A stretch of DNA of 64,000 bases. It comes from a virus (lineage: Duplodnaviria > Heunggongvirae > Uroviricota > Caudoviricetes). Positions within the stretch are counted from its first letter, which is position 1. Each line of letters opens with the position of its first letter. This document shows positions 58,649 to 62,598 of this stretch, one piece after another. The DNA lies in the IMG/VR virus record IMGVR_UViG_2541047857_000014, one strand, 5' to 3'. The notes under the pieces are model-generated. The model worked only from the letters and a program-made list of their open reading frames with translations. It had not been told where the DNA came from and did not search any database. The translations under genes were made by a program, and so were the position numbers.

Positions 58649-58999
58649 TCACTTCAGTCGTTCACGGGCCGTCTTCGCCTTATGACACGGCCAGCACAGG
58701 CTCTGCAGATTGCAGTCTGCATCAGTGCCGCCATGCGCTTTAGGGATGATGTGGTCAACGGTTTTCGCCTCACGCACCACACCGACATGCAGGCACAACT
58801 GACACAGGCCTTTGTCACGCTTCAGCACGCGCGCGCGGATAACATCCCACTTCGAACCGTAGCCGCGCTGGTGACGGGATTGTCCTGGCTTGTATTGTTT
58901 CCAGCCTTCGCTTTTGTGGCTTTCACAATAGCCTGACGGATCAGTGGTGGTTTGGCGGCAGCCGCGAACGCGGCAGGCTTTTGGGGTTCGTGGGGGCAT
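58649..58999 (-). CDS. HNH endonuclease
   Basis: 116 aa with CxxC...DHIIPKAHGG...CxxCH motif, upstream of terminase. Confidence 0.8.
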   Translation of the reverse strand: MPPRTPKACRVRGCRQTTTDPSGYCESHKSEGWKQYKPGQSRHQRGYGSKWDVIRARVLKRDKGLCQLCLHVGVVREAKTVDHIIPKAHGGTDADCNLQSLCWPCHKAKTARERLK

Positions 59000-59038
59000 T
59001 TAAAGTGGGATCTAACTCTAATAATTTAAAAAATTTAA

Positions 59039-59542
59039 TTGGGTCTTGATATTAATCACATAGACTCAATGCTCTTTAGTTCTTACATAGGTGGTTGTAT
59101 TATGAGTATCCCCAGTTTAGATGTTCATAAAGTTGTTAAGTGCGCAGAGCATAAAAAGGCTTTAGATGCAATATCTCTCAAACTTAAGAATAACATTATT
59201 GACTCAAGCTCTGAATACGATTTTCTTGGCGACACAATAATTTTCAATAAAGATAAAAAAAATAGGTTAACCCTCAAACTTTCAACATATGAACTAGAAC
59301 TTATTTTCAAAGAAACACTGCTAGTCATTGATGAAGCTCCTGTATTGAAGTTTGCTGCCATTGACCCAACCGATGAAAATAACAACGAGCTGATTGATTT
59401 ATTTTTATCCAAAGGTGGATTTATTTATATTAGAGAATACAAATCCGAGCCACATTATGAGTATGGCGACACTTCTCTATTTTTACATATACTTGACGCT
59501 ACTCTTAAAGAGCTTAAATCTGCAAACAAAATATCCTATTAA
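59039..59542 (+). CDS. AT-rich moron, hypothetical protein
   Basis: 167-aa ORF on opposite strand inside a minus-strand late operon. Confidence 0.45.
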   Translation: MGLDINHIDSMLFSSYIGGCIMSIPSLDVHKVVKCAEHKKALDAISLKLKNNIIDSSSEYDFLGDTIIFNKDKKNRLTLKLSTYELELIFKETLLVIDEAPVLKFAAIDPTDENNNELIDLFLSKGGFIYIREYKSEPHYEYGDTSLFLHILDATLKELKSANKISY

Positions 59543-59648
59543 ATAAATTTTTGCTAACATAGCCCCGCGCCATGACAAGATTTTCTGTTCTAGATGCAAG
59601 GGCTATGTGTGAATATCTATAAACAAAAACCCCATCCGGTGATTTTTG

Positions 59649-59900
59649 TCATTTTTTAGCCATCTCAATTGCGGCATCAAAAAGTCGTTCAAGAATAAAA
59701 TCAGGGTACTGTAATTTTTCTTGCTCGATATGAAGCTCATAAATTTTCCCTTCCCACTCCCATTTAAAATTAAATCCAGAAGCAGAAGGTGCGAAATGTG
59801 TTTTAGCTTTAGGGTTAGCGTAACCAGCAACAGTCAACACATCAAACTTAAAATCTTGAGGTTTAATACGCATAATCATATCCTTTGCCAAGTTCATCAT
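59649..59900 (-). CDS. AT-rich moron, hypothetical protein
   Basis: 83-aa ORF. Confidence 0.4.
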   Translation of the reverse strand: MMNLAKDMIMRIKPQDFKFDVLTVAGYANPKAKTHFAPSASGFNFKWEWEGKIYELHIEQEKLQYPDFILERLFDAAIEMAKK

Positions 59901-59970
59901 TATTCTTCTCGATTATAAAACAATGAATAAAATCATTAAAGCATAGACGTTAAATATCCTCAAAATGTGA

Positions 59971-60408
59971 TTAGTTGGGACATTGCGTCCTGATATACTC
60001 CTGCAAGTAATTGACCTGTGAGGTTATCTTGTCGATTCCACTTCGGAGACGGTAATAATGGAGTTCAGCATCTGCTGTAAGTCTAGGGCTTTCTCCATCG
60101 CCCATGCCGCTGGCTCCGGTCGTTGACTTTGTACAGGTGGCGGCGACTTGCAGGCGCTTATGCCCAGCAGAAACATCAGCACGAAGACTTTCGATAGTCG
60201 CATTAGCATCAGCAAGCTCCTTTGTATATCTGGCATCGAGTTCAGCTACATTACGTTGACGCTTCTGCATATCAGCGATGATGGATGTGGCTTTATCGCG
60301 CTGTACTTTGTAGACGATGGCGTCATCACGGTAATTATCAACAGCCCATGACAAGCAGACGATGATGCAGATAACCAGAGCGGATATAATCACCGTTACT
60401 CTGCTCAT
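59971..60408 (-). CDS. Rz i-spanin
   Basis: 145 aa, N-terminal TM then coiled coil; embedded Rz1. Confidence 0.8.
60024..60203 (-). CDS. Rz1 o-spanin lipoprotein (embedded in Rz)
   Basis: [18 protein letters not shown] lipobox, Pro-rich. Confidence 0.7.
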
Positions 60409-60881
60409 ACCTGAATCTCTTTGACCGTTCCGCCGGCTTCTTTGAATTTTGCAATCAGGCTGTCAGCCTTATGCTCAAACTGACCATAACCAGCTCCCGG
60501 CAGTGAAGCCCAGATATTGCTGCAACGGTCGATAGCCTGACGAATATCACCGCGATCAATCATCGGTAAAGCACCACGCTCTTTAATCTGCTGCAGTGCA
60601 ACAGCATCCTGGCTTTTTGGAGAGAAGTCTTTCAGTCCAAGCTGTTTACGGTATGCATCCCACCAGCGGGAAAGAAGCTGGTAGCGCCCGGCAGCCGTTG
60701 ATTTGAGTTTTGGGTTTAGCGTGACAAGTCTGCGAGGGTGATCGGAGTAATCAGTGAATATTTCTCCGCCCACAATGACGTCATAACCATGATTACGTGT
60801 CGGTTGTAGCCCATTATCCGTTCCTTCTGACCAGGCCACCATATCGAGGAAAGCTTTACGCTGAGGATTAAGATTTTGCAT
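60405..60881 (-). CDS. endolysin (lambda R-like)
   Basis: 158-aa ORF with EGT..G catalytic region near N-terminus. Confidence 0.8.
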
Positions 60882-61272
60882 TTTTCACCCCTGTCAGTCG
60901 TTCCCAGAAGTACGTCAGTGCAACCGAACCCATCGCACCACTAATCCCCGCAGTTGCGAGAATCATGTAAATACTGAATCCACTTTCGATACTGATTAGG
61001 CCACCAATAACACCGGTGAATCCTGATACAACTATCTGAGCGAGGGCATTTATCCAGCTCCACGTTGCTTTACTCTGCTTCACATCAATCAGGTAACGGA
61101 CAAGCCCCCCCCAACCTGCGATGATCAGCAAAACAAGCCAGAACGCTCCGGCAAGATTCTCTTTTTCGTGCATATGAATAGCCGCAGTTTCGCCTCCGAC
61201 AGAAAATCGGAGCGTGAAATGATATGTTGATTTATTATTAATTCGAAAATTACATTCTAATTCATCAGGCAT
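60868..61272 (-). CDS. holin (start uncertain; internal Met at 61173 gives 101 aa)
   Basis: three hydrophobic helices upstream of endolysin. Confidence 0.65.
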   Translation of the reverse strand: MPDELECNFRINNKSTYHFTLRFSVGGETAAIHMHEKENLAGAFWLVLLIIAGWGGLVRYLIDVKQSKATWSWINALAQIVVSGFTGVIGGLISIESGFSIYMILATAGISGAMGSVALTYFWERLTGVKNAKS

Positions 61273-61282
61273 TGATGATTTT

Positions 61283-61320
61283 ATAATAATAAAGGCCGTT
61301 CGTTACGGCCTTTATTATTG
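61283..61320. terminator. bidirectional hairpin
   Basis: aaaggccgt-tcgtt-acggccttt flanked by A/T runs. Confidence 0.5.
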
Positions 61321-61324
61321 ATAT

Positions 61325-61660
61325 TTATTTTACATCCCAAGGTAGTTCCTCAAGAGAGAAGACTAATTCATTATCAATAATTTCGTATTCTGCATAACCT
61401 TCAACCTCTCCTGAGAAGTTATTGTCAACGCATCCTTCATAATAGCTATATGGTGCTATAAAGTGAAACCCATATTCATCTATCTCTGTGATTTCAAAAT
61501 TGTAGTAATCGTAAGAATATCGAATATCATCATCAGAAATAGAACTAAGTACATAGTTATTAAATTTATCGGAATGCTTAACGATAAGTTCTGACAACGC
61601 GTCAAGATTCTCTGGAGAGATATTTCCTAACGGTAATCTGTACTCAACGGCATTAATCAT
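61325..61660 (-). CDS. AT-rich acidic moron protein between tR' and holin
   Basis: 111-aa ORF, very acidic. Confidence 0.45.
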   Translation of the reverse strand: MINAVEYRLPLGNISPENLDALSELIVKHSDKFNNYVLSSISDDDIRYSYDYYNFEITEIDEYGFHFIAPYSYYEGCVDNNFSGEVEGYAEYEIIDNELVFSLEELPWDVK

Positions 61661-61715
61661 ACAACCTCCTTTTTAACTGATATGAGGTTATATAATGTGT
61701 TTCAGTACAAGTAAA

Positions 61716-61739
61716 TAAAAACCCGCTCAACAGCGGGTT
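61716..61739 (-). terminator. tR'-like terminator downstream of Q (site of Q antitermination)
   Basis: aacccgct-caacag-agcgggtt with T-run on minus strand ~110 bp after Q stop. Confidence 0.6.
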
Positions 61740-61845
61740 CGTGAAAATTATCAACGGCAGACATACAAAGCCCATCGTTGAGAAAATCTTATCCATATTT
61801 TTTGAAAAATGCAAGCTTCATGTCACTATCTTCGGCGAAAATCAC

Positions 61846-62598
61846 TTATCTCGTCACCTTTCTCAATTGTGTTTCAGCATATGCTTCTTCCTGCCAGCAC
61901 TTTGTTACTAGTTTATCAATTACGTCTGCATATCCTTTGTACCACTGATAATCAGTCAGGTCTGGAACCAGCTTCTGGACATGACGTCGTGCCAGTGTAG
62001 TCGGTAAACGGCTAAACCGGTTTCCATTGCAACGCCCACAAGTCTTATAAACAGGCGTGCCATGAAGCCGGGTTCTTTTTTCATCCAGGACAATACCTTT
62101 ACCCTTACACCCTCTGCACGCCGTGCTGACTTCTCCCTTGCCATGACAATGCTGACACAGTTCCTTCACCCACTCTTCTTTGATAACGGATTCCCCGCTT
62201 CTGGAATGTTTCACCACTTCGCGCAATACATTATGAAATCCAGTACCAGTACAATGCTCACAGCGAGCCTTACTTGCCGCAGACCTGGAATAATCAGCAA
62301 AGGCAAAATTCACAAGGTAAGGGATGATCTGTAACCGGGTTTCTTCACTCAATTTGTTCAATGTCGGGTTATCCAGTGCCATCGCGTAATTGAGCAGGCC
62401 TTCAATCGCAAACTGAGGATCCTGAACACCAACTTTTGCCAGGAATAAGGCAAACCCAAGCGGTGCTTTCGACTGCACCATCCCCTGCGCAGCCATTACA
62501 TCCGTAATTGTTAAACCACCCGAGCCTGTCGCCGATGCGTCATCGCTCAATTTTGGAGATTTTGGGGAGTAATATTTCGGTAAGGCTTCAAGGTTCAT
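61846..62598 (-). CDS. Q: late antiterminator Q (start at MNLEALPKYY)
   Basis: Cys-rich zinc-binding segments CEHCTGTG...CQHCHGKG...CRGCKGKG...CGRCNG. Confidence 0.7.
   Translation of the reverse strand: MNLEALPKYYSPKSPKLSDDASATGSGGLTITDVMAAQGMVQSKAPLGFALFLAKVGVQDPQFAIEGLLNYAMALDNPTLNKLSEETRLQIIPYLVNFAFADYSRSAASKARCEHCTGTGFHNVLREVVKHSRSGESVIKEEWVKELCQHCHGKGEVSTACRGCKGKGIVLDEKRTRLHGTPVYKTCGRCNGNRFSRLPTTLARRHVQKLVPDLTDYQWYKGYADVIDKLVTKCWQEEAYAETQLRKVTR

Follow-up and report, generated by a model that had tools for sequence, protein, structure and literature searches.

A moron cassette encoding an uncharacterised acidic protein between the Q and holin genes of an Escherichia coli prophage

In lambdoid phages, the slot between the antiterminator gene Q, with its tR' terminator, and the holin gene houses cargo of medical importance, Shiga toxin being one example, and genes for defence and counter-defence are increasingly found there. 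Morons in the sense of Juhala and Hendrix (PMC2629481) are recognised by patchy presence among related phages at a defined insertion point, by a composition that differs from their surroundings, and by a promoter and an intrinsic terminator of their own. In phage phi80, Tai and Ati are defence and counter-defence morons described as a 'noncontiguous operon' (PMC11364771). Here we analysed a 64,000-nucleotide (nt) stretch of DNA from a virus of the Caudoviricetes (IMG/VR record IMGVR_UViG_2541047857_000014; hereafter the window), in which a gene between Q and the holin gene (61325..61660, minus strand) encodes an acidic protein of 111 amino acids (aa). This gene belongs to a cassette that is a genuine moron by position, presence/absence, composition and terminator. 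The best explanation, which we hold tentatively and at slightly less than an even chance, is an autonomous moron cassette encoding an uncharacterised acidic protein. It is favoured because of the patchy distribution, the foreign composition, the travelling terminator, a promoter-like element, the existence of chromosomal copies and the geometry of a predicted RNA stem.

The acidic gene starts with ATG, comprises 111 codons and encodes WP_000606308.1 (UniProt J7QCH0), which is labelled a hypothetical protein in RefSeq and was mentioned in no paper found by our literature search. The product is a tyrosine-rich protein of 13 kDa (12 Tyr), with 24 Asp and Glu residues versus 5 Lys and Arg, a net charge of −19 and an isoelectric point (pI) of 4.05. 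It is cytoplasmic, with a grand average of hydropathy (GRAVY) of −0.35, and no hydrophobic segment was found. A very strong Shine-Dalgarno sequence, AAGGAGG, has its 3' end 5 nt upstream of the ATG. The GC content of the gene is 33.3% versus 50.6% for the whole window, the compositional contrast expected of a moron. Between the Salmonella and Citrobacter orthologues, the ratio of nonsynonymous to synonymous substitution rates (dN/dS) was 0.28, and comparison of the E. coli gene with either orthologue gave a proportion of nonsynonymous differences (pN) of 0.17-0.18 beside a saturated synonymous proportion (pS) of ~0.79. These values place the reading frame under purifying selection, and the acidic gene is real and more than a chance open reading frame (ORF). 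The features on which the initial annotation of this locus had been built, namely a 111-aa ORF, strong acidity, AT-richness and a hairpin on either side, were thus borne out in every particular.

The gene was present in 131 of 5426 complete E. coli genomes, whereas flanking Q or holin sequence occurred in more than 3000. Homology of the E. coli sequence to other prophages with a Q82-type Q gene (Qin, SfV and others) ends at ~61706-61720, in the T-tract of a tR'-like terminator, and homology to other prophages with the same holin begins at ~61205. From these breakpoints, the lineage-specific insert extends over ~61206-61705. The cassette is a self-contained, horizontally acquired unit of ~500 bp, inserted immediately behind the tR' terminator and ~30 nt ahead of the holin leader. 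When the E. coli, Salmonella and Citrobacter loci were aligned, a single conserved block was obtained, which starts with the upstream terminator (GAACCCGC...GCGGGTTTTTATTTAC), includes the gene and ends with the downstream terminator. Outside this block, no similarity was detected among the three genera, and their Q genes belong to different families. The proposal of the initial annotation that the gene is moron-type cargo of the interval between Q, tR' and the lysis genes therefore held up, given its presence in 131 of 5426 genomes against more than 3000 for the flanks, the 33% GC, the flanking terminators and the different cargo found in this slot elsewhere.

We assessed the flanking hairpins against 200 dinucleotide shuffles. 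The tR'-like intrinsic terminator (61709..61740, minus strand) consists of a GAACCCGC-TGTT-GAGCGGGTT stem followed by a T-tract; its hairpin (61740-61719) had a free energy (dG) of −14.9 (z −4.4), was more stable than all 200 shuffles, and aligned with the annotated post-Q terminator of phage SfV. Downstream, a predicted intrinsic terminator hairpin (61284..61320) directly follows the gene, 10 nt after the stop codon, with a dG of −20.2 (z −7.6), again better than 200 of 200 shuffles. Because it is flanked by an A-tract and, on its opposite side, by a T-tract, it is predicted to act in both directions. A predicted terminator was found 8-25 nt after the stop codon in 16 of the 17 prophage-borne loci scanned, and this downstream terminator travels with the gene across genera. 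The AT-rich, cassette-specific spacer between this terminator and the holin leader (61206..61283, minus strand) contained no feature that we could identify, and every Rfam match inside the cassette fell below the gathering threshold.

The upstream terminator was near-identical (GAACCCGC-N4-GAGCGGGTTTTTATTTAC) in the window (61709-61740), in two loci of Salmonella and Citrobacter (L003, 7920-7950; L009, 7919-7950), and in these loci it follows unrelated Q genes, of the Q82 type in E. coli and of the Q21 type in Salmonella and Citrobacter. The shared terminator may act as a joint at which modules are exchanged by recombination, or may move together with the cassette.

To place the gene in a wider context, we used tblastn to find Q and holin homologues in 56 loci drawn from assemblies and IMG/VR. 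Q lay upstream and a holin gene downstream on the same strand in 46 of these loci, and five further loci, cut by contig ends, showed one or the other. The neighbouring Q proteins belonged to the Q82 (PF03589), Q21 (PF06576) and Q-lambda (PF06530) families, with an unclassified protein of 204 aa taking the place of Q as a further variant. The holins were of the holin_3_3, holin_8 plus holin_3_7, or holin_2 type, and the endolysins of the GH24, GH19 or lysozyme type. The family thus keeps the Q-holin slot while the Q and holin families are swapped, and it does so down to ~30% protein identity.

In most loci, the acidic gene lies ~90-270 nt upstream of the holin gene, a proximity that would suit an antiholin, an endolysin regulator or another lysis-regulation protein conserved beside the holin. 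This reading is highly improbable. The acidic gene occurs beside holins of three unrelated families and beside endolysins of the GH24, GH19 and lysozyme types; it is missing from most of the prophages that share the window's holin, such as those of O157 strains; the protein has no membrane segment; a terminator separates its gene from the holin gene; and the chromosomal copies described below stand without lysis genes. That the slot is kept beside three named Q families and as many holin families itself argues against a lysis-specific role, and a role in lysis or virion assembly is unlikely. The initial annotation had named a conserved lysis-regulation protein as the identity that would contradict it, and the three holin families, several endolysin types and chromosomal copies speak against that identity.

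The exceptions to the slot were few. One locus is a degraded prophage remnant in Erwinia tracheiphila, riddled with insertion sequences (IS). Two others are stand-alone chromosomal copies of distant members in variable islets (L035, 4001-4333; L036, 4001-4336), one adjoining sbcB and the other lying between the minC/ycgL region and dsbB/fadR. Both have large non-coding gaps at their flanks, and no plausible partner ORF was found beside either.

No toxin was found adjacent to a family member in the E. coli, Salmonella, Citrobacter, Enterobacter, Duffyella, Erwinia or chromosomal contexts. Nor did any toxin, nuclease or other gene accompany the family consistently; only the Q and lysis modules recurred. 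Co-occurrence with a specific toxin or nuclease, put forward in the initial annotation as a check, was accordingly absent from the contexts examined, and the acidic protein needs no linked partner gene. Two candidate partners, a 293-aa Erwinia protein and a 289-aa Salmonella protein, were rejected: they are unrelated to each other and neither occurs in the window. The Salmonella protein matches the PADLOC candidate PDC-S42; the Erwinia protein has no such match.

In two Salmonella loci (L022 and L023), the Q-holin slot holds a family member together with this 289-aa gene on the opposite strand (L022 3163-4032, minus strand; PDC-S42 match, E 1.6e-31), a 140-aa ORF and a 63-aa winged-helix-like ORF, and in L023 also an N6/N4 methyltransferase gene. 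The presence of this candidate defence gene shows that the slot collects conflict genes. In SfV, the same slot carries other cargo, orf47 and a DNA methyltransferase gene (orf48).

These contexts bear on the suggestion, made in the initial annotation, that the size and charge of the protein would suit an immunity or inhibitor role. An orphan immunity protein against a competitor's toxin, such as a bacteriocin nuclease or an effector of a type VI secretion system (T6SS) or of contact-dependent inhibition (CDI), would be small, acidic and AT-rich in its gene, as well as stand-alone, mobile and patchy, and colicin- or pyocin-like genes do occur elsewhere in some host prophages. Those genes lie several genes away, in two contexts only. 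No cognate toxin adjoined any member, no Pfam immunity family matched even at E<=1, and an immunity role leaves the strict preference for the Q-holin slot unexplained. We therefore consider an immunity protein quite unlikely. Of the wider suggestion, the acidity stood, being conserved throughout the family, but no partner, no match to an immunity, defence or anti-defence family and no informative structural neighbour was found, and the role itself remains a guess.

We next examined the extent of the family. PHROG 13663, a family of unknown function, matched the acidic protein over its full length (positions 1-111 of 111; E 9.4e-54, 181.6 bits). A word-indexed search of 5.8 billion proteins returned nothing beyond close relatives, the orthologues in Salmonella (72% identity) and Citrobacter (69%). 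An exhaustive profile search of 1.8 billion cluster representatives gave 26 clusters (defined at 50% identity) at E<=0.001, nearly all of proteins of ~110 aa, and a second profile search gave Enterobacter, Citrobacter, Salmonella, Duffyella and Erwinia as hosts. One 2661-aa match (P0019) was dropped as a spurious repeat match, since it is a DUF11 repeat protein. The distant subfamily found here, with 28-40% identity and members in Enterobacter, Citrobacter, Erwinia and Duffyella, widens the PHROG 13663 family.

All family members are named 'hypothetical protein' in their sources, and all are acidic (net charge −9 to −20, pI 4.05-4.74). Their genes have a GC content of 33-40% versus 45-51% in the flanking DNA that was fetched. 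Conserved features are F33, R47-Y48, a (Y/F)(Y/F)xGCxDxN turn and a C-terminal LDE(T/L)xW. Among 185,579 species-representative genomes, a contig scan with the alignment of the second subfamily found a single carrier, Erwinia tracheiphila, and a scan with the alignment of close relatives found none. A tblastn search of 50,697 GenBank phage records with three family members gave no match. The family is a rare, sparse and uncharacterised accessory family of the Enterobacterales.

Directly after tR', the cassette contains conserved −35/−10-like motifs that could provide the promoter of a moron. In the window, the sigma-70-like candidate (61687..61715, minus strand) consists of TTTACT (61715-61710), a 17-nt spacer and TATAAC (61692-61687). 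The Salmonella and Citrobacter cassettes have TTTACA-17-TATAAC, so that the hexamers are kept while the spacer varies. In the second subfamily, TTG(A/G)CA-15 nt-TAnnnT occupies the same place inside a conserved TTTCTGA...TTTTTGACATAA element. From these motifs, we infer that the cassette may have its own sigma-70-like promoter. In order, the mobile unit comprises a terminator, this promoter-like element, the acidic gene and a second terminator.

A second feature of the leader is a predicted 13-bp fold-back hairpin (61656..61696, minus strand) that occludes both the Shine-Dalgarno sequence and the AUG of the acidic gene. Its 5' arm (ATTATATAACCTC, 61696-61684) is joined by a 15-nt loop to its 3' arm (GAGGTTGTATGAT, 61668-61656), and the 5' arm overlaps the putative −10 hexamer. 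The hairpin had a dG of −13.7 kcal/mol (z −3.7), and none of 200 shuffles was as stable. Analogous stems were found in other prophage-borne members (ATCCACTT/AGGTGGAT, TTTTCACCTT/AGGTGAAAA, TTCCTT/AAGGAA and GCTCC/GGAGT). These stems differ in sequence, tracking each member's own Shine-Dalgarno variant, and in a MAFFT alignment of the leaders their arms were out of register. In a duplex-energy test on nine leader types, with shuffled upstream sequence as the control, p was 0.003-0.004 for the window's subfamily (0.004 for the window itself) and 0.001 for the Salmonella locus L022, and Fisher's combined p over the nine types was ~2e-6, a value that is optimistic because some leader types are related and were treated as independent. 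The stem was absent from both chromosomal members and from the degraded Erwinia copy.

Taken together, these features are consistent with the following mode of expression. In a lysogen, the acidic gene would be transcribed from the weak sigma-70-like promoter on the T-tract side of tR', and transcription would stop at the cassette terminator, leaving the lysis genes silent. In the lytic cycle, RNA polymerase modified by Q would read through the entire cassette, and in these longer transcripts the 13-bp stem would hide the ribosome-binding site and the AUG. Because its 5' arm overlaps the cassette −10, the cassette's own transcript would not contain that arm. The protein would thus be made mainly in lysogens and silenced on the late transcript, and it would most likely act alone, as a stoichiometric binder or decoy, in a function that benefits the lysogen or serves conflict between phages.

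Several points weigh against this autonomous expression. A stricter promoter scan did not call the window's 61687-61715 site, a miss explained by the C as the last base of its −10. The motifs are non-canonical in both subfamilies, the −10 of the first lacking the final T and the spacer of the second being 15 nt long. The conserved TATATAACC could serve purely as a hairpin arm, in which case there is perhaps no internal promoter, and the acidic gene would then be a late gene with damped translation. In phi80, tandem terminators precede the holin gene with nothing between them; since such terminators occur without cargo, a downstream terminator is no proof of an internal promoter. In addition, an earlier accessibility metric (mean unpaired probability at positions −14 to −5), later replaced by the duplex-energy test, was not significant at most loci.

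The gene might accordingly be simply the first late gene, expressed by Q read-through only, with a lytic role such as that of a counter-defence or host-takeover inhibitor and with the hairpin tuning its translation. We regard this as doubtful but as a real possibility. The acidic gene shares the orientation of the late operon, and in 46 of the 56 loci no other ORF comes between it and tR'. The very strong Shine-Dalgarno sequence, the non-canonical promoter motifs and the cargo-free phi80 terminators fit this reading as well. Against it, most close relatives of this phage lack the gene, which indicates that the gene is dispensable, and the chromosomal copies stand outside any late operon. A dedicated terminator travels with the gene, and a TTGACA-like element is conserved after tR' in the second subfamily. 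A stem that hides the ribosome-binding site on the very transcript that expresses the gene would also be counter-productive. Autonomous expression of the moron cassette remains the reading that we prefer.

We also asked what the protein might do. AlphaFold2, run with a 25-sequence alignment, gave a model with a predicted local distance difference test (pLDDT) score of 86.7. The predicted fold is alpha+beta, with one strand, two helices and a five-stranded antiparallel sheet (E3-10, H19-28, H30-41, E48-50, E56-60, E64-75, E80-95 and E98-105). Foldseek against BFVD returned nothing at E<=0.001, and the best match of a profile search against the PDB (E 0.18) was rejected. With the protein itself, searches of Pfam, NCBIfam and PADLOC found nothing; with 25 relatives added, no immunity, defence or anti-defence family of these databases matched at E<=1, and the sole match of any kind, NIR_SIR_ferr (E 0.016), was below the cutoff. 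Since the BFVD and PDB searches gave nothing significant, neither homology nor fold assigns a function. Of the checks put forward in the initial annotation, homology and structure prediction thus yielded the PHROG match and the AlphaFold2 model but no informative structural neighbour.

On the basis of charge, size, the lack of a partner and the lack of enzyme-like matches, we rank as most likely that the protein is a stoichiometric binder or decoy whose target is basic or binds nucleic acid. Conserved residues (R47, C77, D79, N81, E105 and W108) might just as well belong to a ligand pocket or an active site. This leads to the alternative of a small-molecule binder or enzyme with an NTF2/cystatin-like cone, for example a sponge for an immune signalling nucleotide. 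The (nearly) invariant R47-Y48, G76-C77-x-D79-x-N81 and C-terminal L-D-E-T-V-W agree with it, but the fold resemblance is weak and no known sponge protein in the PDB or BFVD matched, and we judge it improbable. A bolder form of the binder reading is that the protein represents a new class of stand-alone acidic prophage inhibitor, for instance a decoy of a DNA-binding or basic protein of a superinfecting phage or of host defence, expressed from its own transcript and silenced by fold-back on the late transcript. We consider this form unlikely. If true, fold-back silencing would keep the inhibitor from disturbing the phage's own lytic cycle.

The cassette is bordered by two genes that lie outside it. 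The upstream neighbour is a Q antiterminator gene of the Q82 type (61846..62598, minus strand; PF03589, E 3e-54; PHROG 127), corresponding to the RefSeq 'antitermination protein' WP_001047143.1. Its product carries a DnaJ-like CXXCXGXG zinc motif, and a DUF968 gene precedes it. Between Q and tR' lies a PR'-like late promoter region (61786..61826, minus strand), located by a consensus scan and by reading of the sequence, with two overlapping candidates, GTGACA-18-AAAAAT and TTGCAT-17-TAAGAT (61814-61786). The region shares 87-93% identity with the sequence that follows Q in SfV, Qin and further Q82-type prophages.

The downstream neighbour is a holin gene of the Phage_holin_3_3 type (60868..61173, minus strand, with the RefSeq start at 61173; PF16083, PHROG 785). 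A longer, program-called holin ORF (60868-61272, minus strand) begins at an ATG at 61272 and has 134 aa, as opposed to 101 aa from the RefSeq start. The extra 33 codons fall within the cassette-specific AT-rich spacer and are probably not translated. After the holin gene (PF16083) come genes for a GH24 endolysin and Rz (PF03245) with an embedded Rz1, an HNH gene and the terminase genes. The embedded gene, an out-of-frame 70-aa ORF (60024-60236, minus strand) within Rz (59971-60408, minus strand), encodes a lipobox-like LLGISAC and corresponds to the expected Rz1 o-spanin; the RefSeq record has no annotation for it.

A second AT-rich island (58951-60100, 30-37% GC) lies between the Rz/Rz1 and the HNH/terminase genes. 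It contains a 167-aa ORF (59039-59542) on the strand opposite to the late operon, unannotated in RefSeq, and a 74/83-aa ORF on the late strand (59649-59900, WP_001220676.1). Its layout resembles that of the phi80 tai/ati 'noncontiguous operon' (PMC11364771), but its ORFs do not resemble phi80 orf63/orf64 in sequence and gave no match in Pfam, PHROG or PADLOC.

The carrier of the cassette is a prophage of ~40 kb at ssrA of extraintestinal pathogenic E. coli (ExPEC; UTI89, S88 and APEC O18). Over a 661-bp interval, the window matched the chromosomes of the E. coli strains UTI89, S88, IHE3034, NU14, APEC O18 and the type strain ATCC 11775 with 100% identity. The prophage is that of an SfV/e14-like temperate phage, given its combination of a lambdoid regulatory and lysis region with a contractile tail and a head of the HK97 type. 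A 37.7-kb circular 'plasmid' of E. coli CX04 (NZ_CP081716.1) proved to be the same phage genome, with an identical acidic gene. This circular record suggests an excised, circular form of the prophage and hence a phage able to excise. Its small ORFs between Rz and HNH differ from those in the window. In UTI89, a cargo-like cluster (2900623-2906462; L061 2624-8463) lies past the tail-fibre end of the prophage, beside ssrA. It comprises genes for a DUF262 (GmrSD-like) protein and a LEM-3-like GIY-YIG protein, a broken DinI gene and a recombinase fragment, and may be a defence islet at the junction of the prophage and ssrA.

The carriers of the cassette include major ExPEC, neonatal-meningitis and avian-pathogenic E. 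coli lineages (UTI89, S88, IHE3034 and APEC O18). Should the protein turn out to act in phage conflict or in interaction with the host, the repertoire of the slot would gain a new family. What makes the cassette mildly notable is that the family stays in place while the modules on both sides are swapped, and that the predicted fold-back gate would tie translation to the choice of promoter. Such a gate, if true, would be a way for a moron to stay silent during the lytic growth of its carrier. The cassette offers an annotated example and a candidate to include in functional screens.

Compared with known systems, the acidic cassette is an ordinary, familiar kind of phage cargo, a well-delimited hypothetical gene. 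It shares its slot with the lambdoid Q-tR'-S morons (stx, SfV orf47 and the orf48 methyltransferase gene, and lambda orf-64), and like them it is patchy among related phages, foreign in composition and flanked by terminators. Unlike them, it carries an unrelated, uncharacterised family that holds the slot across Q and holin families. Whereas stx relies on late transcription, the acidic cassette has a promoter-like element of its own. Among described protein families, its gene is a full-length member of PHROG 13663, which is itself unannotated.

Ocr, ArdA, Ugi, Arn and AcrIIA4 resemble the acidic protein in being small, cytoplasmic, strongly negative, encoded on mobile elements and free of a linked partner. 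They show no sequence or structural similarity to it, and they are early genes, while the acidic gene lies in the late region. For its predicted control, the nearest parallel is IS10 and IS50, for which Davis, Simons and Kleckner reportedly described fold-back inhibition of read-through transcripts in 1985. The predicted stem matches that geometry: the ribosome-binding site and AUG pair with an upstream segment that overlaps the element's own −10, so that only transcripts starting outside the element could form it. The differences are that the stem here is a computational prediction and that the element is a phage moron, not a transposase gene. Finally, the cassette resembles phi80 Tai/Ati as prophage cargo in a Q-controlled late operon for which the logic of the lysogen and that of lytic growth differ (PMC11364771). 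BLASTP of TaiEcA and AtiEcA (phi80 orf63/orf64) against the acidic protein gave no meaningful alignment, and the phi80 slot lies upstream of the packaging genes, whereas the acidic cassette is a single gene co-oriented with the operon in which it resides.

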